From positions 71,891-135,890 of the forward strand of contig JBAZJZ010000001.1 in the NCBI GenBank assembly GCA_041650995.1: 64,000 nt of DNA. The letters run 5' to 3'. Source of the DNA: Patescibacteria group bacterium. Lineage in GTDB: Bacteria > Patescibacteriota > Patescibacteriia > XYB2-FULL-38-15. The notes below the pieces were generated by a model, which saw only the letters and a list, made by a program, of their open reading frames with translations, was not told the origin of the DNA and made no database searches. Below are positions 1 to 57,425 of the stretch, piece after piece; position 1 is the first letter of the stretch; each line of letters begins with the position of its first letter. A program made the position numbers and the translations under genes.

Positions 1-13
1 GGGCTATTGGGGC

Positions 14-574
14 GTGGCACTTTTTCTTTTTCCGATTTTACTTGGCGTAATTTTTGCCCTAAAAATTTTTATCGTTTGGTATTACAACGCTTTCATTATT
101 ACAAACCGGCGAGTTATCGATCTTGACCAGAGAGGATTTTTCGAACGGATTGTTTCCGAAGCGGCGCTAGAAACAATCCAAGATGTTTCCCACCGCCGCA
201 AAGGAATTTGGCAGACGATTTTTCGCTATGGCGATGTTAGAATCCAAATTGCTGATACGGACACGGGTCTTGAAATAAAAAATGTCCGCGCCCCAGAAGT
301 TACCCAGCAACTTATTTCCGACCTGCTCCATCCCACGCGGCGCAAGCCGGACGGAACTCCGGATTTGTCCATTGCTCCGCCGAATGATGAGGAATTTAAA
401 ATTATTAAAGAAAATATTGCTGACCTCGACGAAAGGCAACTTGAGGAAATTGATAATTTAATTAGAGATAAAATCCGTCAGGCAAAATTAAAAAGACTTG
501 AAGAAATAAAAAATATTGGCCAGAAAGAAGAGAGCTCGACCCGCATTCCTAAAAATGATATACTTAGAGAGTAA
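14..574 (+). CDS. hypothetical protein with N-terminal transmembrane segment and C-terminal charged coiled-coil; ORF may start upstream of the window
   Basis: ORF track 186 aa; hydrophobic N-terminus MALFLFPILLGVIFALKIFIV, K/E-rich C-terminus; no recognisable family. Confidence 0.35.
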   Translation: MALFLFPILLGVIFALKIFIVWYYNAFIITNRRVIDLDQRGFFERIVSEAALETIQDVSHRRKGIWQTIFRYGDVRIQIADTDTGLEIKNVRAPEVTQQLISDLLHPTRRKPDGTPDLSIAPPNDEEFKIIKENIADLDERQLEEIDNLIRDKIRQAKLKRLEEIKNIGQKEESSTRIPKNDILRE

Positions 575-587
575 ATCCTTTTGAATT

Positions 588-983
588 ATGAAGAAAGAAT
601 TGAATGCCAAGCGAGTTATTTCCTCAAAACTCTTTTTATTTTTAGGTGTTATTGTTTTGGGATTTTTAATTTTTTCTTTTGGAAAGAAATTTTTAGAAAG
701 CCGGGAAATTGACAGGGAAATAAAAGAGACAGGGGATGAAATAGCGCGGCTTGAGGCGAAAGATAACGAACTTGAAAGTTTTTTAAATTTCTTGAGTACA
801 GACGATTTTTTGGAACAGGAAGCTCGGTTGAAATTTAATTTACAAAAACCAGGGGAATCGGTCGTGATTGTTCCCGGAACAGGTGTAGAAAGCGCAAATA
901 GCGGGGATCAAAAAGAGTCAGCGGTCGGCAACCAGACATTTAGTAATCCCCAAAAGTGGTGGAATTATTTTTTTAAAAGTTAA
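588..983 (+). CDS. ftsB: septum formation initiator (FtsB/DivIC-like) cell division protein
   Basis: 131 aa; single N-terminal TM followed by coiled coil (EIDREIKETGDEIARLEAKDNELE) and a GESVVIVP-type C-terminal motif typical of FtsB/DivIC. Confidence 0.5.
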   Translation: MKKELNAKRVISSKLFLFLGVIVLGFLIFSFGKKFLESREIDREIKETGDEIARLEAKDNELESFLNFLSTDDFLEQEARLKFNLQKPGESVVIVPGTGVESANSGDQKESAVGNQTFSNPQKWWNYFFKS

Positions 984-1005
984 ATATTAAAGATTAAAAA
1001 CATTT

Positions 1006-2016
1006 ATGGATTTATCTTCAAACGAAAATCAGGAAAAGGAAGTGGGAATTTTGGAAAATAATCCCGAAACTGCTAAAACGGCGGAACTTCCACAAAATTT
1101 AAAAAAGGACGGATTGAAAAAGTTTTTTTTGGGCCTCGGACTTGGCGTGTTGAGCGTTGTAATTTTAGCTGCGGTTATTTTTGGCGTTGGAATCTATCGT
1201 TTCGGCTGGAGCGGCGAGATTGTCGCAAAAATTACCAAAGTGGCGCCGTACCCGGCGGTGTTTGTTAATTGGCGGATGATCGGGTATTACGATTATGCTG
1301 ATGACGTGGAAACCTTGAAGACTTTTTTTGCTAGCCAGGGAGAAGATCTTGGCGCGGCCATTCCGGATGATAAGGAAATAAAAAAGCAGGTTTTGGACAG
1401 GCTTGTTAAAAATGAACTTTCATATCAGTTGGCAAAAAAATACGGCATAAAAATTTATGATGAAGATTTAGAGAAGGAAATTCAAAACATTGTTGATCAG
1501 AGCGAATCAAGGGAAAGTGTTGAGCAAACCTTGGAGGAGCAATACGGCTGGGGAATTGAAGAATTTAAAGAAAAAGTTTTGAAGCCATTTCTTGTGCAGC
1601 AAAAATTACAGGAGGCAATCTCAAAAGATGAAACTTTAAATCAGGAAGCGAAGAAAAAAGCAGAAGATGTTTTAGCTGAAATTAAAAAAGGAGAAAAAAG
1701 TTTTGAAGATTTAGCTAAAGAATACGGTGAAGACGCGACCGCGGAAGACGGAGGTGATTTGGGCTATTTTGGCAAAGGAACAATGGTTAAGGAATTTGAA
1801 ACAGCGGCGTTTTCTTTAGGAGTCGGCGAGACAAGCAGTTTAGTTTTAACAGAATATGGTTATCATGTTATTAAAGTTACGGAGCAGATAAAAGATGAAG
1901 CAGGTGAAGTGAGCGAGGTGCGGGCCAGCCATATCTTGATTAGGACAAAAAGTTTAGATGATTTCTTGACTGAAGAACTAGAAAAGGCAAGGGTTTGGCA
2001 GTGCGTTAAATTATAG
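1006..2016 (+). CDS. membrane-anchored parvulin-type peptidyl-prolyl cis-trans isomerase (PrsA/SurA-like)
   Basis: 336 aa; N-terminal TM; PpiC-type rotamase signature SHILIRTKS ... GGDLGYFGKGTMVKEFETAAFSL...GYHVIKV. Confidence 0.7.
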   Translation: MDLSSNENQEKEVGILENNPETAKTAELPQNLKKDGLKKFFLGLGLGVLSVVILAAVIFGVGIYRFGWSGEIVAKITKVAPYPAVFVNWRMIGYYDYADDVETLKTFFASQGEDLGAAIPDDKEIKKQVLDRLVKNELSYQLAKKYGIKIYDEDLEKEIQNIVDQSESRESVEQTLEEQYGWGIEEFKEKVLKPFLVQQKLQEAISKDETLNQEAKKKAEDVLAEIKKGEKSFEDLAKEYGEDATAEDGGDLGYFGKGTMVKEFETAAFSLGVGETSSLVLTEYGYHVIKVTEQIKDEAGEVSEVRASHILIRTKSLDDFLTEELEKARVWQCVKL

Positions 2017-2071
2017 AAAAAGAAAAATTGATAATCAAAAAACAGCCTTCAAAAAATGAATTGCTGTTTTC

Positions 2072-2147
2072 TGGAGCCGACGGTGGGATTTGCACCCACG
2101 ACCTCTGCTTTACGAAAGCATTGCTCTGCTGGCTGAGCTACGTCGGC
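2072..2147 (-). tRNA. tRNA-Thr (anticodon CGT)
   Basis: Reverse complement GCCGACGTAGCTCAGCC...TTTCGTAAAG...GGTCGTGGGTGCAAATCCCACCGTCGGCTCCA: 7-bp acceptor, T-loop GTGCAAATCC, encoded CCA, loop with CGT. Confidence 0.8.
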
Positions 2148-2149
2148 AA

Positions 2150-2220
2150 AGCGGGATACCGGAATCGAACCGGCGCCTCAACCTTGGGAAGGTCGCATAC
2201 TGCCACTATACTAATCCCGC
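2150..2220 (-). tRNA. tRNA-Gly (anticodon CCC)
   Basis: Reverse complement GCGGGATTAGTATAGTGGCAGTATGCGACCTTCCCAAGGTTGAGGCGCCGGTTCGATTCCGGTATCCCGC; anticodon stem CGACC/GGTTG, loop TTCCCAA; no encoded CCA. Confidence 0.75.
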
Positions 2221-2288
2221 GCTTTTTTGTAAATATTAATCTAATTCTAGGATATTTTAGAAGAAAAATCAAGTCCGAAGTTTTAAGG

Positions 2289-2317
2289 TTGGCATTTTAA
2301 AAAGAATCACGTATAAT
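2289..2317 (+). promoter_or_regulatory. sigma70-type promoter upstream of ftsE (TTGGCA-17-TATAAT)
   Basis: TTGGCA at 2289-2294, 17-nt spacer, TATAAT at 2312-2317, 9 nt before the ftsE ATG. Confidence 0.5.
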
Positions 2318-2325
2318 GATTTAAT

Positions 2326-3006
2326 ATGATTGAGTTTCGAGGCATAGAAAAAATTTATCCTCCAAATATAACCGCTCTGGATGGTGTTAATTTGAAAATT
2401 AACGCCGGAGAGTTTGTTTCTATTGTGGGTCAGTCAGGAACAGGCAAGACAACTCTTATAAAACTTTTGACTGCGGAGGAGCGTCCAACGCGAGGAAAAA
2501 TAACTATTTCCGACTGGGATATCACAAAAATCAGGCGTTCTGAAATTCCGACGCTTCGCCGGCAGATCGGAGTTATTTTTCAGGATTTTAAATTATTGCC
2601 TAAAAAAACTATTTTTGAAAATGTTGCTTTTGCCCTGGAAGTTTGCGGCGCGTCATCCCACAGAATAAAAACGATTGTTCCGCAGGTTTTGCGCATTGTG
2701 GGTTTGGAAGAAAAATCTGGCCGCTATCCAAAACAGGTTTCTGGCGGTGAACAGCAGAGAGTAGCCATTGCCCGCGCTCTTATCCACCGGCCGAAAATTT
2801 TGGTTGCCGATGAGCCGACAGGAAATTTAGATTCCATTAACACAAGAGAGATTGCCGATTTACTTTTGAAAATAAATGAGTTTGGCACGACAGTTATTTT
2901 AGTTTCTCACAATCGGGAGCTGGTGAATTCCTTGCGGCGAAGAGTTGTGACACTCGAGCAGGGGACGGTTATCAGTGATCAGGAAGTTGGGAAATACGTT
3001 CTATAA
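2326..3006 (+). CDS. ftsE: cell division ATP-binding protein FtsE
   Basis: 226 aa; Walker [13 protein letters not shown] signature [15 protein letters not shown], Walker [13 protein letters not shown]; directly upstream of ftsX. Confidence 0.9.
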
Positions 3007-3015
3007 TTTTTCAAT

Positions 3016-3090
3016 GTAATTACTCAATTACTAATTACCCAATTACTTCACTACAATCTGTAATTAGGTAATTAATGGTAATTAGGTAAT
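3016..3090. repeat. imperfect inverted repeat built from AATTAC/GTAATTA hexa-heptamers in the ftsE-ftsX intergenic region
   Basis: gtaattactcaattactaattacccaattac ... gtaattaggtaattaatggtaattaggtaatt; the arms are reverse-complementary in their repeated AATTAC units. Confidence 0.6.
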
Positions 3091-3099
3091 TTTCTAATA

Positions 3100-4014
3100 A
3101 TGTTCTCGGCGTTATTACGTATTCTAAAATTTTCTTCTCAGGATTTCTGGAGAAATTTTTGGCTTTCCACGGCCACGATAGTAGTTTTGGTTTTGACATT
3201 GGTTTCCATAAATTTTTTAATAACTTTGAATTTTTTGACGAAAACTGCGGTAGCCGAAGTGGAAAATAAAATTGATGTCAGTATTTATTTTAAGCAGGGA
3301 GTGGCGGAAAGCGAAATCGGAAATATAAAATCATATCTTCTAAGTTTATCTACAGTGAAGGGCGTGAAATATGTTTCGCCCGAAGAAGCACTCCGAGAAT
3401 TTGAAAAAAAACATAAAAACGACGCGATAATTAAAGAATCGCTTGAAGAAGTCGGAGAAAATCCCCTGGGAGCGACGCTTGTAATCCGGGCGCATAACAC
3501 GGCGGATTATCCGGAGATTTTGAAAGTTTTTGACGCCGCGCAATACGTCAATATTATTCAAGAGAAAAATTTTGAAGATCACGAAGTCGTAATTAAAAAA
3601 ATTGATTCCATTTCGGAAAAAGCAAAGACAACAGGTGCGGGTCTCGCCGGACTTTTCGCCGTGATCGCGGTTTTGATCGGGTTTAACACGGTCCGTATGA
3701 CGATCTACACGCATCGCGAAGAAATTGGGGTGATGAAATTAGTCGGCGCGGCCAACTGGTTTGTCCGGGCGCCTTATGTCGCGAGCGGAATTTTTTACGG
3801 AATTTTTGCCGTGCTTTTCACGGTTTTAATTACCTTTCCGGCAATCGGTTTTGCCGAGCCGTATTTGGCAGGATTTTTCGGCGGTTCAGAATTCAATTTA
3901 CTCGGATATTTTTCAAATAATTTTCTGCAGATTTTTGGCTGGCAGTTTGTGGGCGTAGTTCTTCTGAATATGGTGACAAGCAGTCTGGCGGTCGGCCGGT
4001 ACTTGAAAGTTTAA
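3100..4014 (+). CDS. ftsX: cell division permease FtsX
   Basis: 304 aa; N-terminal TM, large extracytoplasmic domain, three C-terminal TM helices typical of the FtsX-like permease family; follows ftsE. Confidence 0.85.
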   Translation: MFSALLRILKFSSQDFWRNFWLSTATIVVLVLTLVSINFLITLNFLTKTAVAEVENKIDVSIYFKQGVAESEIGNIKSYLLSLSTVKGVKYVSPEEALREFEKKHKNDAIIKESLEEVGENPLGATLVIRAHNTADYPEILKVFDAAQYVNIIQEKNFEDHEVVIKKIDSISEKAKTTGAGLAGLFAVIAVLIGFNTVRMTIYTHREEIGVMKLVGAANWFVRAPYVASGIFYGIFAVLFTVLITFPAIGFAEPYLAGFFGGSEFNLLGYFSNNFLQIFGWQFVGVVLLNMVTSSLAVGRYLKV

Positions 4015-4030
4015 AAGAAAAAAGATAAAA

Positions 4031-4058
4031 TACAGACAAGCTGAAATGTCTGTTTTTT
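4031..4058 (+). terminator. rho-independent terminator after ftsX
   Basis: acagacaagctgaaatgtctgt followed by ttttttt. Confidence 0.7.
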
Positions 4059-4065
4059 TATTTCA

Positions 4066-4139
4066 TTCCGGGATCGTCTAATGGCAGGACAGCAGCCTTT
4101 GAAGCTGTTTATCTTGGTTCGAATCCAAGTCCCGGAGCC
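4066..4139 (+). tRNA. tRNA-Gln (anticodon TTG)
   Basis: TCCGGGATCGTCTAATGGCAGGACAGCAGCCTTTGAAGCTGTTTATCTTGGTTCGAATCCAAGTCCCGGAGCCA; anticodon loop CTTTGAA; encoded CCA. Confidence 0.85.
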
Positions 4140-4244
4140 AAGGGAAAGTTTGGGTATCGACCCAGACTTTCCCTTGATCTCGCGGACGGGCGATTCAACC
4201 GAGCCCCCGAACCGGCCGCTTTGTCCTTCCGGCACCGAGGAGCC

Positions 4245-4267
4245 TTCGAATCCAAGTCCCGGAGCCA
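4245..4267 (+). repeat. direct copy 1 of tRNA-Gln 3' end (T-loop to CCA, 23/23 nt), preceded by conserved junction caccgaggagcc
   Basis: ttcgaatccaagtcccggagcca is identical to 4117-4139; it lies 105 nt downstream of the tRNA. Confidence 0.85.
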
Positions 4268-4273
4268 TTAAAT

Positions 4274-4447
4274 ATGAATAAAAACATAATTAGAATACTG
4301 TGTTTTGTTTTTGCTATACTGCTTGGTGTTTTTATGTTTGTATATGGGGAATTTGATGATAGCCCAGGAGGACAATTGCTCGGACTTATAGTAGTTGTCA
4401 TTGGCATTGTGGGTATTATAAGAAGTAAGAAAAAAATTTCAAACTAA
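4274..4447 (+). CDS. 58-aa predicted membrane protein carried between the two tRNA-Gln 3'-end repeats
   Basis: ATG at 4274, stop at 4445-4447; MNKNIIRILCFVFAILLGVFMFVYGEFDDSPGGQLLGLIVVVIGIVGIIRSKKKISN has two hydrophobic helices; below the 60-aa cut-off of the ORF track. Confidence 0.45.
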   Translation: MNKNIIRILCFVFAILLGVFMFVYGEFDDSPGGQLLGLIVVVIGIVGIIRSKKKISN

Positions 4448-4456
4448 CGAGGAGCC

Positions 4457-4479
4457 TTCGAATCCAAGTCCCGGAGCCA
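4457..4479 (+). repeat. direct copy 2 of tRNA-Gln 3' end (23/23 nt), preceded by acgaggagcc
   Basis: ttcgaatccaagtcccggagcca repeated a third time. Confidence 0.85.
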
Positions 4480-4527
4480 AAGAAAAGTACAGATTCTTGT
4501 TCTACACTTTTCCTTGGCTCGTGGTAG

Positions 4528-5691
4528 TTGTTTTTTAATATGGGTAATACTTTATTTGATAATTTTAATAGAACTTACGATGGCCCAGCTAACTATACGG
4601 AATCCGAGTTTGATTACTTAAATAAATCAGCACGTGAAGGTTGTGAAAATGCACGAAAATGTCTAGATTTGTGGTTTAGAGAATATTGCATTAGATACCC
4701 GTCTGCCATAAAAGATTTTAAAGGGCGATTCTGTTCTCAGAGTGATGAGCAGCATCTTGGAGCTATTACTGAACTTTATTTGCACAATTTTTTATTAAAA
4801 AGTGGTTATAATAAAATTGAGAATCATCCAGAGACAGAATCCGCCAAGCATCCAGAATTTTTAGTATTGGACGATGGTAAGCCCTTATTTTTTGCAGAAG
4901 CCGCTATGGTTTATGGTCGTAGAGATAGGGGTCGTGTAAAAAAATTCGAAGCAACCATACTTGATTCCATAAATACTATTGAATCACAAAATTTTTTAAT
5001 CTTAGTTGAAATAGAATCAGTTGATTCTAATCGGCCGCCCTCCACGAAAAAAATAAAAGAGTGTATCGAGAAACAATTAAATTGCCTGGATTACTGCGAA
5101 GTTCTAGAAAAAGATGAAGAGCAATATCCAAAATGGGAGTATAGAGAAAATAATTGGAAATTAAACTTTATTGCTTCTCCCATTGAGGCGGAGGCTCGTC
5201 ATTATCAAGATAGATTTCCTTCTAGGAATATTGGGAGCATTAATTACCCTATTAAACAAATTGAATTAGACGAAGAGATTAAGGAAACCGTTTCGAAAAA
5301 AAGCAAAAAGTATGGCAATTTAAGATTACCTTTTATTATTGTGTTAAATGTAATTAGCGACAGTATATTCTATAGCGATGAAGTGGCTATAAGCGCATTA
5401 TTTGGTAAGCGGACGGTTCAATCTGTCACTGATGCTAATGGCACAAGGACAATTAAGCAGGGACGTACATTTGATGGAATTATTGTACATCCAGGAACAG
5501 GCATTCAAAACACCAAGATGTCGGGCTTGTTAATAATGAAAAATCTTACTAGTTTTACATTAGAAAACGTCAAACCAGTTTTGTGGCATCATCCAAAAGC
5601 TAAATATCCATTTGATGTCAATTTTTTAAAAGATATTGATCATAAAATTTATAATCCTAGCAGCGGCAAAATGGAAGATAAAATGTCATAA
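4528..5691 (+). CDS. hypothetical protein (387 aa), orphan immediately downstream of the tRNA-Gln repeat cassette
   Basis: Long ORF with no family recognised by eye; codon and composition match the host AT-rich genome. Confidence 0.4.
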   Translation: MFFNMGNTLFDNFNRTYDGPANYTESEFDYLNKSAREGCENARKCLDLWFREYCIRYPSAIKDFKGRFCSQSDEQHLGAITELYLHNFLLKSGYNKIENHPETESAKHPEFLVLDDGKPLFFAEAAMVYGRRDRGRVKKFEATILDSINTIESQNFLILVEIESVDSNRPPSTKKIKECIEKQLNCLDYCEVLEKDEEQYPKWEYRENNWKLNFIASPIEAEARHYQDRFPSRNIGSINYPIKQIELDEEIKETVSKKSKKYGNLRLPFIIVLNVISDSIFYSDEVAISALFGKRTVQSVTDANGTRTIKQGRTFDGIIVHPGTGIQNTKMSGLLIMKNLTSFTLENVKPVLWHHPKAKYPFDVNFLKDIDHKIYNPSSGKMEDKMS

Positions 5692-5697
5692 TCAAAT

Positions 5698-7272: not shown

Positions 7273-7653
7273 TTGATTAAATTTTTAACATTACAAAGTA
7301 TGGCAAATCTTCAAGAAGTTTGGCTCCGCATGCAAAAAACAAAAAAGAAACAAAAAGAAATAAGATCCGCGTATAAAGACGCGTTGGCCAATAGCGCTGA
7401 TTATGGAAAAATCGTGGAAGATTTAAAAACCCTTCGCGAAAAAAAGAAAAAAATTGAAATGGATGTGCGAGGAGATTTTTCTTCCGAGTTTAATGAACTT
7501 GAAACTTTGAAAGCGGACACGGAAACCGACGCGGAAATGCTTTCGGATTTAGCTTTAAATACCTTCGTGAAAGGGGAGACGGTCCAAGTGACTGATGAAT
7601 ACGAAAATAAATACGAGCCGGTTTTTGTCGTGAAATTTAAACGGGTATATTAA
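7273..7653 (+). CDS. hypothetical coiled-coil protein
   Basis: 126 aa, K/E-rich, no recognised domain. Confidence 0.35.
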   Translation: MIKFLTLQSMANLQEVWLRMQKTKKKQKEIRSAYKDALANSADYGKIVEDLKTLREKKKKIEMDVRGDFSSEFNELETLKADTETDAEMLSDLALNTFVKGETVQVTDEYENKYEPVFVVKFKRVY

Positions 7654-28896: not shown

Positions 28897-29005
28897 TTCT
28901 TTTTAAAACGGAGCCCCCAAACGAAGTTTGGGGAAACGCAGGGCGGCGAGCGTAGGGCAAGTCCCGGCCAGTTGGACGCAGCCGAAAGCTCGCAAGCCCA
29001 AGTAA

Positions 29006-30990: not shown

Positions 30991-31061
30991 GGGGGTGTAG
31001 TTCAGTGGTAGAACACTGGTCTCCAAAACCAGGGATGAGGGTTCGATTCCTTCCGCCCCCG
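30991..31061 (+). tRNA. tRNA-Trp (anticodon CCA)
   Basis: GGGGGTGTAGTTCAGTGGTAGAACACTGGTCTCCAAAACCAGGGATGAGGGTTCGATTCCTTCCGCCCCCG; loop CTCCAAA; CCA not encoded. Confidence 0.8.
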
Positions 31062-31166
31062 CTTGGATAAATAAATCACATTTGTGATTTGTTTATCCAT
31101 ATGAGCGGAGTTGGAGAGAAACCTCGCACTGTAAGTCCGTTGCGGCCGTTTCTGCACCGAGGAGCC

Positions 31167-31186
31167 TCCGATTCCTTCCGCCCCCG
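31167..31186 (+). repeat. direct copy of tRNA-Trp 3' end (T-loop to acceptor, 19/20 nt), preceded by caccgaggagcc, exactly 105 nt after the tRNA
   Basis: tccgattccttccgcccccg versus tRNA ttcgattccttccgcccccg; the 12-nt junction caccgaggagcc is identical to the one at the tRNA-Gln copies. Confidence 0.8.
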
Positions 31187-50054: not shown

Positions 50055-50132
50055 GGCCTCATCGTCTAGCCTGATCTAGGACGCCTCCCTCTCACGGAGG
50101 AAACTCGGGTTTAAATCCCGATGGGGCTACCA
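50055..50132 (+). tRNA. tRNA-Glu (anticodon CTC)
   Basis: ...CGCCTCCCTCTCACGGAGG... anticodon arm CCTCC/GGAGG with loop CTCTCAC, T-arm TCGGGTTTAAATCCCGA, encoded CCA; the exact 5' end of the acceptor stem is ambiguous (wobble pairs). Confidence 0.6.
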
Positions 50133-50283
50133 AAAATAAATTGGGAATTAAATATAAACTAGCAAAAAGAAATTACTGCGAATTTGTCTCGAGGGATTTA
50201 AACCAGGGAAGGGTCGGAAACCGTCAGGTTTCCGTTCGCGGAAATATTAAAACCGCAGGGTTTTAAAGAGCGAAGCGACGTTT

Positions 50284-50330
50284 AATTTCCCGATGGGGCT
50301 ACCAAAAATAAATTAGGAATTAAATATAAA
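50284..50330 (+). repeat. 44-bp direct repeat of the tRNA-Glu 3' end plus 30 nt of downstream sequence (compare 50114-50158), bracketing a 128-bp hairpin-rich insert
   Basis: tcccgatggggctaccaaaaataaattaggaattaaatataaa versus tcccgatggggctaccaaaaataaattgggaattaaatataaa (1 mismatch). Confidence 0.8.
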
Positions 50331-50334
50331 ATGT

Positions 50335-55757: not shown

Positions 55758-57425
55758 ATGAACTTGCCAGAGCCTCTGCATAAACAATTTTCTAATCTCA
55801 TGGATGATATCCAAACGGGGAGGTTGAAGATACCTCAGTTTCAAAGAGAATTTGTTTGGGATATAAAAAAATCAGCAAGCCTACTCGATAGTATAATTAA
55901 AGGATATCCAGTTGGTACTTTTATTTTTTGGAAAACAAAAGATAGATTAAGATCTGTTAAAGATATAGGCAATCTGAATCTTCCAGAGCCGGCCGTCGGT
56001 GATTATGTTAATTTTGTCTTAGATGGTCAGCAACGAATTACCAGTCTTTTCGCTGCATTTAAGGGAGAAAAAATATTGAGAAGCGATGGAAAAACAGAGG
56101 ATTTTTCAGAAATATATATTGATTTAGACGCGAAGGAAGACGAAAAAATAGTTACTTCAGAGGTTGACGACGGGAATTCAAAAAATTTAATAAAATTAAA
56201 GGATTTGCTATATGGGGGAATTACATTTCTCGCCAAATATCCAGAAAACTACCTGCATAAACTTGAAGAATACAAAAAGAGAATTGAATCTTATAATTAT
56301 TCCGTGATACAGGTTAATGAAGTACCCATAGATGTTGCTACTGAAATTTTTACAAGAATCAATGTTGGTGGTAAGCCACTGTCGTTATTTGAAATTATGG
56401 TTGCAAAGACATATGACTATGACAAAAATTTTGAACTTTCTGAAAAATTTGATGCCCTAGTTGAAAATTTAAAAAATGTTAATTACGAAACTATTTCTGA
56501 TGCAACGGTATTACAGATTATTTCTTTAATATTAACAAAAGAATGCAAGAGAAAAATTATTTTAAAATTGAAGAAAGATGAATTTATTGACAAGTGGGAC
56601 GAAGTTGTAAACGCAATCGAAAGCGCGGTGGATTACTTTAGAAGTTTCTACAGAATTCCTGTTTCGCAGATACTGCCGTATAATGCTTTGCTTGTGCCAT
56701 TTTCATATTTTTTCTACTACCATAAGGACAAACCGACCGGAGACAAACAAAAATACCTTCAAGATTTTTTTTGGCGAGTATCTTTATCCGGTAGATATTC
56801 ATCGTCGGTTGAAAGTAAATTAGCGCAGGACATTAAGAGAATAGATAAAATTTTAGAAGATAAATTACCGGATTATGACTGGCCAATTAATTTATCGCCC
56901 GAATTCATAAAAAATAATGGCTGGTTTAGCGCCGGCAGAAGTTATATAAAAGCAATATTATGTATCTATGCCTATCACCAGCCAAAATCTTTTAACGACA
57001 ACTCACTTGTAAATATTAGTAATTACTGGTTAAAACAAGCGAATAGCAAAAATTATCATCATTTTTTTCCACGTGCCTATTTAAGTAGATTGAATAAAGA
57101 TGAAAAAATGATAAATCATATAGCTAACATAACTATTGTCGACGATTTTCTTAATAAAAGAGAAATTAAAGATAAGCCGCCATCCAAGTACATGGAAAAA
57201 TTTAAAAAAGAAAACCCTCATCTTTCAGAAACAATGAAAACCCACCTGATTAATGATATTGATAATATGGGAATTTGGGAAGATAATTATGAATTGTTTT
57301 TTGAAAAAAGAATTGAATCGATTAGTAAGGATATTGAAAAAAGAATAATCCCACAAGAAATTGATGGGAAACCACAGGCTGATTTATCGGATGATGACTC
57401 CGTAGAAAGTTCAGAACAAGAATAG
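55758..57425 (+). CDS. DUF262 (ParB-like NTPase) plus DUF1524 (His-Me finger nuclease) fusion protein, GmrSD-like type IV modification-dependent restriction enzyme
   Basis: N-terminal IPQFQREFVWD (DGQQR-type DUF262 motif region, LDGQQRITSL present) and C-terminal NYHHFFPRAYL...NHIANITIV HNH-like DUF1524 block; inserted between hsp20 and dnaK. Confidence 0.6.
   Translation: MNLPEPLHKQFSNLMDDIQTGRLKIPQFQREFVWDIKKSASLLDSIIKGYPVGTFIFWKTKDRLRSVKDIGNLNLPEPAVGDYVNFVLDGQQRITSLFAAFKGEKILRSDGKTEDFSEIYIDLDAKEDEKIVTSEVDDGNSKNLIKLKDLLYGGITFLAKYPENYLHKLEEYKKRIESYNYSVIQVNEVPIDVATEIFTRINVGGKPLSLFEIMVAKTYDYDKNFELSEKFDALVENLKNVNYETISDATVLQIISLILTKECKRKIILKLKKDEFIDKWDEVVNAIESAVDYFRSFYRIPVSQILPYNALLVPFSYFFYYHKDKPTGDKQKYLQDFFWRVSLSGRYSSSVESKLAQDIKRIDKILEDKLPDYDWPINLSPEFIKNNGWFSAGRSYIKAILCIYAYHQPKSFNDNSLVNISNYWLKQANSKNYHHFFPRAYLSRLNKDEKMINHIANITIVDDFLNKREIKDKPPSKYMEKFKKENPHLSETMKTHLINDIDNMGIWEDNYELFFEKRIESISKDIEKRIIPQEIDGKPQADLSDDDSVESSEQE

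Follow-up and report, generated by a model that had tools for sequence, protein, structure and literature searches.

Copies of tRNA 3′ ends bound miniature conserved modules at a tRNA-Gln gene in Patescibacteria

The 64,000-nucleotide (nt) stretch of DNA analysed here (the window: positions 71,891 to 135,890 of contig JBAZJZ010000001.1, from a Patescibacteria group bacterium) holds a transfer RNA gene, tRNA-Gln(UUG), that is followed by two exact copies of its own 3′ end. These copies close two short units of DNA, and it is the anatomy, the distribution and the probable origin of such units that concern us. The flanks of the locus are housekeeping genes, with ftsE and ftsX upstream and genes for an S-adenosylmethionine-dependent methyltransferase and an RluA-type pseudouridine synthase downstream. 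The features of the locus, given below with lengths in base pairs (bp), nt or amino acids (aa), are all on the forward (+) strand.

4067-4140, + strand: tRNA-Gln(UUG), CCA encoded (ARAGORN; Rfam tRNA, 62.6 bits)
4118-4140, + strand: repeated core, the last 23 nt of tRNA-Gln, T54 to A76 (exact pattern match)
4135-4142, + strand: GAGCCAAG, an 8-bp identity block with the crossover of a serine-recombinase element, empty in the window and occupied in ENA contig ERZ27247363:k141_335293
4139-4176, + strand: hairpin type 1, a near-perfect 17-bp stem right after the tRNA (repeat search; fold)
4178-4197, + strand: imperfect inverted copy of the tRNA-Gln 3′ end, TCTCGCGGACGGGCGATTCA (duplex analysis)
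4211-4244, + strand: GC-rich "family A" module, with its end GCACCGAGGAGCC at 4232-4244 (local pattern search; alignment)
4245-4267, + strand: copy 1 of the T-loop-to-CCA segment, which with its arm makes up the 32-nt exact repeat 4236-4267
4274-4447, + strand: gene for a 57-aa two-helix membrane protein, the cargo of unit 2 (list of open reading frames, ORFs)
4448-4479, + strand (core 4457-4479): arm CGAGGAGCC and copy 2 (exact repeat and pattern match)
4480-4520, + strand (hairpin 4480-4517): hairpin type 2 and TCGTGG, weaker, with ends similar to those of hairpin type 1 (fold, -9.4 kcal/mol)
4540-5691, + strand: 383-aa orphan gene between the last copy and the methyltransferase gene (ATG start call)

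The repeated core, TTCGAATCCAAGTCCCGGAGCCA, is composed of the T-loop, the 3′ strand of the T-stem, the 3′ strand of the acceptor stem, the discriminator base and CCA. It is found exactly three times in the window (at 4118, 4245 and 4457, each time on the + strand), no further match within 3 mismatches occurs elsewhere in the 64 kb, and the number expected in shuffled sequence is 0.00. In this the locus has the hallmark repeat of a tRNA-targeting integrative element or genomic island, in which the 3′ part of the target tRNA is directly repeated and one end keeps the tRNA intact. Copies 1 and 2 are alike over 32 exact nt (4236-4267 versus 4448-4479), as both are preceded by the 9-nt arm CGAGGAGCC, which has no match to the tRNA; in one related locus (L065; loci in other genomes are given by such numbers) the arm before copy 2 is longer, GCGGCACCGAGGAGCC.

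Unit 1 (4141-4244) is non-coding. It forms the 104-nt spacer between the tRNA and copy 1 (127 nt from start to start) and has a G+C content of 62.5%, versus 41.9% for the window. Its opening hairpin folds at -29.4 kcal/mol (z -7.2), has no U-tract and is not flagged as an intrinsic terminator; it is also the right half of the attB of the serine recombinase discussed below. The inverted copy of the tRNA end that follows is not significant by itself (z -0.3). It is placed like the clearer inverted copies of the family B units described further on, and such copies are significant in L010 and in two units of L031. Unit 2 (4268-4456) carries the 57-aa gene and is closed by the final 9-16 nt of the family A module. 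The sequence directly 3′ of tRNA-Gln in L052 and L064 has its homologue in the hairpin behind copy 2. The DNA between the repeats holds no integrase, its content being the 104-nt non-coding unit and the 57-aa membrane ORF, and no recombinase, integrase or transposase gene is encoded anywhere in the window.

An original prediction, made by a model from the letters of the sequence, had described much of this anatomy. Exact matches confirm the recurrence of the 23-nt tRNA end at 4245-4267 and 4457-4479 that it reported, and it was also right about the long near-perfect hairpin at the start of the spacer, the missing integrase and the miniature size of the units (104-189 bp). Some of its measurements need correction: copy 1 is where it was said to be, at a distance of 104 rather than 105 nt; the two-helix gene encodes 57 rather than 58 aa, with a stop that abuts the arm instead of overlapping the junction; and the orphan protein that comes next has 383 aa when read from the ATG at 4540, the predicted 387 being counted from a TTG at 4528. 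An assembly artefact is ruled out, for the arrangement is repeated in an independent ENA assembly, a Logan contig begins inside copy 2 and five other public contigs hold a diverged form. Nor are spacer and copy a second tRNA, a transfer-messenger RNA (tmRNA) or another known RNA: neither ARAGORN nor Rfam gave such a match, and the Rfam 15 covariance models found only tRNAs in the window and nine related loci.

Two further tRNA genes in the window are followed by comparable units.

30991-31186, + strand: sister unit at tRNA-Trp (tRNA 30991-31062; hairpin 31063-31100; spacer; family A module at about 31135-31166)
50055-50331, + strand: sister unit B2 at tRNA-Glu (tRNA 50055-50132; 3′-end copy 50281-50304)

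At tRNA-Trp the copy, TCCGATTCCTTCCGCCCCCG (31167-31186), is that tRNA's own T-loop-to-discriminator segment, and it is abutted at 31154-31166 by the same GCACCGAGGAGCC module end as at tRNA-Gln. The Trp and Gln spacers thus end in a common module, GTCCGTTGCGGCCG...GCACCGAGGAGCC, joined at the same tRNA position. The copy in the window reads TCC where its tRNA-Trp reads TTC. In L078, which shares a metagenome-assembled genome with L052 and whose coding regions are about 85-95% identical to those of the window, the tRNA-Trp itself has the TCCGATT T-loop of the copy, which shows sequence exchange between the repeats. At tRNA-Glu the unit contains an inverted T-arm motif, GGGATTTAAA, at about 50193-50202 and a GC-rich module with a hairpin at 50216-50233; the copy is then followed by about 27 nt of repeated post-CCA flank. 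This B2 module is 85% identical to one that stands after tRNA-Gln in L046.

Units of this kind are found well beyond the window. Exact matches to the 23-mer come from 57 species-level genomes, nearly all of which are Patescibacteria, and 9 of the 57 tRNA-Gln loci carry a unit (seven near-perfect second copies 80-180 nt downstream and two decayed family A units). When tRNAs were surveyed more generally, the last 16 nt of 11 out of 86 recurred on the same strand no more than 400 nt downstream, with 0 in each of three control positions (upstream, other strand). These 11 extra copies, in 13 units, lie about 80-340 nt from their tRNA, and neither a distant repeat nor a repeat-flanked integrase was found at the 57 loci. 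Two apparent orphan copies, L039 and L053, proved to be tRNAs cut by contig ends.

Three module types recur: type A after Gln and Trp, type B1 after Gln and Gly in L031 and also in L017 and L045, and type B2 after Glu in the window and after Gln in L046 and L047. The repeat starts at T54 at the present locus and at G57 or A58 in the B units, and it ends at the 3′ end of the gene, which is CCA for Gln and Glu and the discriminator for Trp, where CCA is not encoded. In B units the copy is preceded by the reverse complement of the T-loop and the 3′ strand of the T-stem, an exact one for the non-palindromic T-loop of tRNA-Gly. In L046, L047, L017 and at the tRNA-Glu of the window the duplication includes the terminator or flank that follows the tRNA. 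We found no description of this module family in the literature on Patescibacteria. The presence of shared GC-rich modules after other tRNAs and in other genomes points to a distinct family of small elements; by the same token, the view that the repeats are decayed remnants of a single island, which the original prediction had offered as its second possibility, becomes unlikely.

Two B-type loci show further repetition. L017 (2233-2423, from a single-cell genome) is a tandem array with an 82-nt period after tRNA-Gln(CUG), and its contig ends inside the array. In L031 the homology between the Gln and Gly units runs past the copy (GCTCGTTTC...) and includes an 87-nt block at 75% identity about 150 nt after the copies, so that either the repeated element there exceeds the hairpin module in size or another unit follows in tandem.

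A mirror image of these arrangements exists on the 5′ side of tRNA genes. At five loci (L031, L033, L055 and L062 at tRNA-Gln, L021 at tRNA-Glu) a copy of the 5′ part of the tRNA lies upstream on the same strand and is interrupted. In the four Gln cases the interruption is a pair of adjacent GC-rich hairpins; in L021 AT-rich sequence follows the break. The copy in L033 runs to C56 of the T-loop and is followed by the two hairpins and then by GAATCC, and L055 reads ...GGTTC, two hairpins, GAATCC..., although in the T-stem its copy already departs from the tRNA. For L031 and L062 the interruption falls in the D-loop. An 81-87-aa GIY-YIG gene (Pfam E 1e-12 to 1e-18) separates the hairpins of L031, L033 and L055 from the intact tRNA, and such a gene is found directly upstream of tRNA-Gln in L036, L042 and L062 as well. 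A hidden Markov model built from three of the tRNA-linked GIY-YIG ORFs recovered these six loci (L031, L033, L036, L042, L055 and L062) and nothing in the window. The window does contain, between tRNA-Thr(GGT) and tRNA-Tyr (28937-29005), a GC-rich, strongly folding sequence of about 62-69 nt that is absent in L078, an occupied/empty pair; it holds GGGCAAGTCCCG, which agrees with the first 12 nt of tRNA-Tyr at 10/12 positions, and may be a 5′-type unit.

How old the Gln units are can be judged from relatives. Synteny searches and a junction scan yielded seven related loci (L051, L052, L057 and L063-L066). A close relative of the source genome is labelled Candidatus Falkowbacteria. Unit 1 is present, intact or decayed, in all six relatives (L051, L052, L057, L063, L064 and the ENA contig named above), which argues that unit 1, at least, is an old, inherited feature. 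The 57-aa gene and the second copy are also found in four related loci. Beyond unit 1 the loci diverge. In L051, where FtsX is 97% identical, the tRNA, hairpin and spacer lead to a decayed copy that abuts the methyltransferase start codon, and the 57-aa gene, copy 2 and the 383-aa gene are missing, possibly by a later deletion. In L064 both units are found, but the 383-aa gene is not, and copy 2 shows decay at 6 of 31 positions. The 57-aa gene and a copy 2 with 1 mismatch occur in each of L065 and L066, where a UvrD-family helicase or membrane proteins come next. Behind unit 1, L052 and L057 show small ORFs that are unrelated, the copy in L057 being truncated. It had been predicted that conservation of the arrangement in all relatives would speak for an ancient structural feature and against mobility. 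Unit 1 is indeed everywhere and appears old; unit 2 and the downstream cargo differ among the relatives.

Among the relatives the alleles of the Gln unit comprise three hairpin types and two spacer variants in every combination, so the unit is a mosaic of alleles, and between two genomes the hairpin, spacer and module are 47-59% identical, versus 83-100% in the flanks.

The same tRNA end receives a much larger element in a sibling genome. ENA contig ERZ27247363:k141_335293 is 100% identical to the window over positions 1-4142 and again from 4135 on, with 10,578 bp in between, and GAGCCAAG stands at both junctions of the insert. The first gene of the insert, which adjoins the tRNA on the opposite strand, encodes a 556-aa large serine recombinase with the Pfam domains Resolvase, Recombinase and Zn_ribbon_recom; other genes encode a caspase-like protease, a NucS/DUF5655-like protein and a NYN-domain protein. 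A terminal recombinase, occupied and empty alleles and a short junction identity characterise large-serine-recombinase elements, and it is this insertion, not the repeats of the window, that displays them. Because the flanks are 100% identical with and without the insert, the window is the empty attB of a 10.6-kb serine-recombinase element, and the tRNA end is a live integration site. Both alleles hold the spacer, both copies and both ORFs, so these predate the serine-recombinase insertion.

In Patescibacteria this recombinase has a very large family, with more than 7,400 relatives at E<1e-30. In L002 (10979-12649, minus strand) the recombinase ORF of the integrated element extends in antisense into the tRNA, so that the complement of tRNA-Gln encodes its final 20 residues (WLRDLDSNQDKQLQRLLSCH); once excised, the element would give the recombinase a different C-terminus. 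Many members of the family have antisense-tRNA tails of this sort (WLPG, WLRG and DSNPRP-type), which suggests that the whole family abuts tRNA 3′ ends, and homologues abut tRNA-Gln in L056, L029, L060 and L061. Three more complete elements were found, two at tRNA-Asn and one at a tRNA with a group I intron, and all four complete elements of the clade, the one at tRNA-Gln included, join at GAGCCA|AG. In the ERZ element, for which both junctions were mapped, 8 bp are common; the other three have no far-end repeat of at least 12 nt, their far-end junction itself not being mapped. The ends of these elements bear no resemblance to the family A module. Since the crossover is at GAGCCA|AG, with about 8 bp in common and no long repeat, we rejected this clade as the maker of the 23-32-nt repeats; it explains the hotspot and not the repeats. 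The original prediction, which took the repeats for the att-type target of integrating elements, is borne out by an integration site at this very tRNA end and corrected in that the resident recombinase made no such repeats.

Two observations concern the tRNAs that this clade targets. The intron-containing one (L077, 11592-11972, minus strand) has its group I intron in the anticodon loop (RF00028, 78 bits, E 3.5e-20) and is not called by ARAGORN. The tRNA-Asn next to the closest recombinase homologue (L075, flipped 7490-7564) was called with anticodon ATT, not GTT.

tRNA genes are classical landing sites of mobile DNA, and displaced tRNA fragments serve to delimit islands automatically. In islands that target tRNA or tmRNA genes the target is regenerated and its 3′ fragment displaced, and the T-loop is a recognised sublocation in the Islander/TIGER framework (PMC4383910). 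The present locus resembles such islands in its T-loop-to-3′-end repeat, intact upstream tRNA, foreign DNA between the repeats and tandem repeats, and differs from them in having no integrase, units of 104-189 bp rather than kilobases, a conserved module common to several tRNAs and an inverted partial copy. It is, then, a variant of the known att-type repeats of tRNA ends. The closest precedent is the island array at ssrA of Dehalococcoides, in which tandem islands are bounded by 20-bp T-loop-to-3′-end repeats with a conserved upstream motif and many islands are integrase-less (PMC3146451). A serine recombinase there, DsiB, of about 540 aa, lies on the reverse strand by attL, and about half of the islands have no integration module (PMC3146451). 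Common to both systems are a conserved motif that does not match the target just before every repeat, a reverse-strand serine recombinase and integrase-less units. The Dehalococcoides islands measure kilobases and carry cargo operons, whereas here the units are miniature and mostly non-coding, and the recombinase crossover lies at the extreme 3′ end and spans 8 bp.

Other systems share single traits with these units. cis-Mobilisable elements (CIMEs) of streptococcal integrative and conjugative or mobilisable elements (ICEs and IMEs) are integrase-less and att-flanked, and they accrete in tandem beside a site that an autonomous element uses. As in a CIME, both att-type repeats are kept here and genes for recombination or transfer are lacking; CIMEs, however, derive from known ICEs or IMEs with the same att, whereas the autonomous element found here uses another crossover and has unrelated ends, and no parent is known. 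Integron cassettes are likewise very small, serial, single-gene units, each with a short, imperfectly palindromic end site. In contrast to integrons, we see no IntI, no attI and no attC with R″-L″/L′-R′ boxes, the repeat is a tRNA end, and one unit only has a gene; no tyrosine recombinase is encoded in the window. A last parallel concerns the mirror units of L031, L033, L055 and L062, where a small GIY-YIG gene beside tRNA genes and partial tRNA duplications recall SegB of phage T4, a free-standing GIY-YIG homing endonuclease in a tRNA gene cluster (PMC2330249). The proteins encoded there have 81-87 aa and consist of the catalytic domain only, their homing role is putative, and the window has no GIY-YIG gene.

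We favour the proposal, which in our judgement has an even chance of being correct, that the repeats are target fragments from two nested insertions of miniature, recombinase-less modules that target tRNA genes. Unit 1 consists of a hairpin that replaces the flank of the tRNA, a degenerate inverted tRNA end and a GC-rich module ending in GCACCGAGGAGCC. Each unit is joined at T54 to a T-loop-to-CCA copy, with the intact tRNA always kept upstream. This geometry could arise by T-loop-directed, att-type insertion in which the element supplies a replacement tRNA end and the original end is pushed downstream. The enzyme would be supplied in trans, none being encoded in the window, and gene conversion, or their further use as sites of recombination, may since have kept the copies identical.

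That the units originated by insertion is what we infer from the observed anatomy, inheritance and decay, module sharing, specificity and hotspot status described above. In its favour we count the T-loop-to-3′-end boundaries, the strictly downstream position of the copies and the sharing of modules between tRNAs; the patchy distribution (9/57), the presence or absence of unit 2 and cargo, the mosaic of alleles, the live attB, the Dehalococcoides precedent and the mirror units point the same way. The serial insertion of miniature, possibly trans-mobilised cassettes that had been predicted is accordingly upheld as to the boundaries, the miniature units and the lack of an integrase, and it fared less well in two respects: no circular or attP-bearing form came to light, and the resident recombinase is excluded as the maker.

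Several results weigh against insertion. The viral and metagenome scans, which include the predicted search for an attP, gave no circular or attP-bearing form: the junction of arm and core and the module are absent from IMG/VR (2.9 million viral contigs), and the metagenomes have the junction in no more than 4 contigs, each a chromosomal relative of this locus. The one viral match to the core (L001) is an ordinary tRNA-Gln, and three viral matches to the B2 hairpin are chance palindromes in coding sequence with no tRNA nearby. The empty site that the relatives were predicted to reveal was not found in clean form for unit 1, since all six have the unit or a remnant (unit 2 and cargo are missing in L051). 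No third repeat closes the 383-aa gene in the window, L064, L065 or L066. No enzyme for the insertions came to light, the only recombinase family seen at this tRNA crosses over at a different point and leaves no long repeats, and units of 127 and 212 bp are too small for easy circularisation as double-stranded DNA. Most extra copies are perfect (6 of 11 without a mismatch in 20 nt), and module and copy at tRNA-Trp are identical at 53/53 positions in L078, where the adjacent hairpin is 47% identical with its stem kept. L063, a tRNA-Gln(CUG) with a unit of the unit 1 type, has the acceptor-stem variant CCCCGAG in both tRNA and copy. The perfect copies, the Trp unit and the L063 variant fit functional selection at least as well as they fit gene-converted scars.

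Functional selection is central to the strongest alternative, which we nevertheless rate as unlikely: that the units are a functional structured RNA or single-stranded DNA mimicking the acceptor/T-arm half of the neighbouring tRNA. Such a mimic would have a 5′ strand complementary to the 3′ strand of T-arm and acceptor, a GC-rich apical domain and the tRNA 3′ strand with NCCA, and selection would keep the copy identical to the tRNA. Possible roles are those of a decoy, of a substrate mimic for RNase P, the CCA enzyme or a toxin, or of a regulator of the recombinase mRNA that overlaps in antisense. The Gln and Gly units of L031 do adopt the same three-way junction fold, with compensatory differences in the closing helix and both hairpins. 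Most units have, in the same relative position just past the terminator, a 5′ segment complementary to the copy, an effect that is significant only in L010 (z -4.7) and L031 (Gly z -2.3), and the 5′ motif at the tRNA-Gly of L031, GGGAATCGAA, does not copy the non-palindromic T-loop and stem directly but is their exact reverse complement. The largely perfect copies, the variant-tracking copy of L063, the conserved module and copy at tRNA-Trp beside a diverged hairpin, and the GC-rich modules in an AT-rich genome also fit a mimic. For family A, by contrast, no covariation was detected (alifold covariation term 0.08), folds are no better than those of shuffled sequences (z +0.55 and -0.51) and the 5′/3′ complementarity is not significant, and we rejected a conserved RNA fold for this family. 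L051, L057 and L064 (copy 2) have a copy that has decayed or been cut short, and no consequence of this is visible; units stand at no more than about one tRNA-Gln locus in six, and Rfam gives no match. A hairpin intervenes between tRNA and unit, no promoter stands out, and copy 2, preceded by an ORF and by an arm of only 9 nt, cannot fold in the way proposed. The mimic is better supported for the B units than for the family A units of this locus.

Somewhat less probable again is that the repeats are the attL and attR remnants of one or two full-size islands, inserted by a tyrosine or serine integrase, whose interior was later deleted. The repeat geometry is the classical one, many Dehalococcoides ssrA islands lack integration modules (PMC3146451), and the region downstream is GC-low with defence-type cargo. 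In L041 (Myxococcaceae) an orphan exact 23-mer (422-444), with no tRNA called, lies by a 387-aa ORF whose N-terminus looks tyrosine-integrase-like, by eye only. Against this stand the position of all 11 extra copies within about 80-340 nt of their tRNA, with no distant repeat at the 57 loci, and the nature of the DNA between repeats, which consists of conserved modules common to several tRNAs and not of random debris. It is implausible that islands at four tRNA types, in many lineages, each shrank independently to about 100 bp.

Local duplication without any element, in which slippage or unequal crossing-over copied a tRNA 3′ end with its flank and drift followed, we regard as improbable. It would suit the inclusion of terminator or flank in L046, L047, L017 and the tRNA-Glu unit of the window, the true 82-nt tandem array of L017 and the TCC variant that the tRNA-Trp of L078 shares with the copy; it leaves unexplained why the same GC-rich modules recur at different tRNAs and in different genomes, why the breakpoints always fall in the T-loop or D-loop and why a GIY-YIG gene stands by some mirror units. 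The idea that the repeats are by-products or pseudo-attB copies of the resident large serine recombinase family is most improbable: although the 556-aa recombinase element sits at 4135-4142 in the sibling genome, homologues abut tRNA-Gln in four further loci, the 23-nt repeat coincides with the presumed left attB half-site and a serine recombinase figures in the Dehalococcoides precedent (PMC3146451), the four elements join at GAGCCA|AG with 8 bp in common in the ERZ element and no repeat of at least 12 nt in the other three, and their ends are unlike the family A module. TnpB/omega-RNA-like guides, IS110 bridge RNAs, retroelement primer-binding sites, casposon- or CRISPR-like target duplication and split or permuted tRNAs were set aside by reasoning, as no feature supports them.

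Taking the insertion proposal and the mimic together, we put forward, as a tentative and broader suggestion, that Patescibacteria carry previously undescribed modular elements of about 60-190 bp. Each would be a GC-rich double-hairpin scaffold fused to a copy of the end of the neighbouring tRNA, often with an inverted copy as well, and would come in 3′ and 5′ versions, some with a minimal GIY-YIG nuclease; the elements would be either mobile elements that target tRNA loops and duplicate their target or RNAs that mimic tRNA minihelices, and the Gln repeats of the window would be two nested members. The commonest tRNA-end repeats in these reduced, uncultured bacteria bound conserved modules of about 100 bp, not islands. 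If the modules are mobile, they would be site-specific elements of an unrecognised class, extremely small in size, and would give rise to false calls of islands and pseudo-tRNAs; if they are RNAs, they would be mimics of tRNA halves. The locus in addition provides an occupied/empty attB pair for a serine recombinase of Patescibacteria and a hotspot of defence-type gene turnover.

The genes at this hotspot differ in what can be said of them. The 57-aa ORF of unit 2 has an orthologue in L064 that is 84% identical, with a ratio of nonsynonymous to synonymous differences (pN/pS) of 0.16 at a pS of 0.46, and is a real gene under purifying selection; database matches of its product are weak and holin-like or to domains of unknown function (DUFs) only. 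From 4268 to 5697 the G+C content is 34%. The 383-aa protein has no Pfam, PADLOC or PHROG family match and only 12 relatives in 5.8e9 proteins, and its predicted model (predicted local distance difference test score, pLDDT, 61) gave no fold match. Neighbours of this family include MmeI/Eco57I-type restriction-modification genes, a UvrD helicase and another serine recombinase. One homologue, in L070, was considered as a second tRNA-linked case and dropped, there being no tRNA at that locus. The region past the last copy acts as a gene-turnover slot that holds defence-like cargo, its content being the 383-aa orphan in the window and a UvrD helicase, membrane proteins or nothing in relatives. Elsewhere in the window (55758-57425), a gene for a 555-aa protein that has a GmrSD_N restriction-endonuclease domain follows hrcA-grpE and an HSP20 gene and stands just upstream of dnaK/dnaJ; it looks like a defence gene within a heat-shock neighbourhood.

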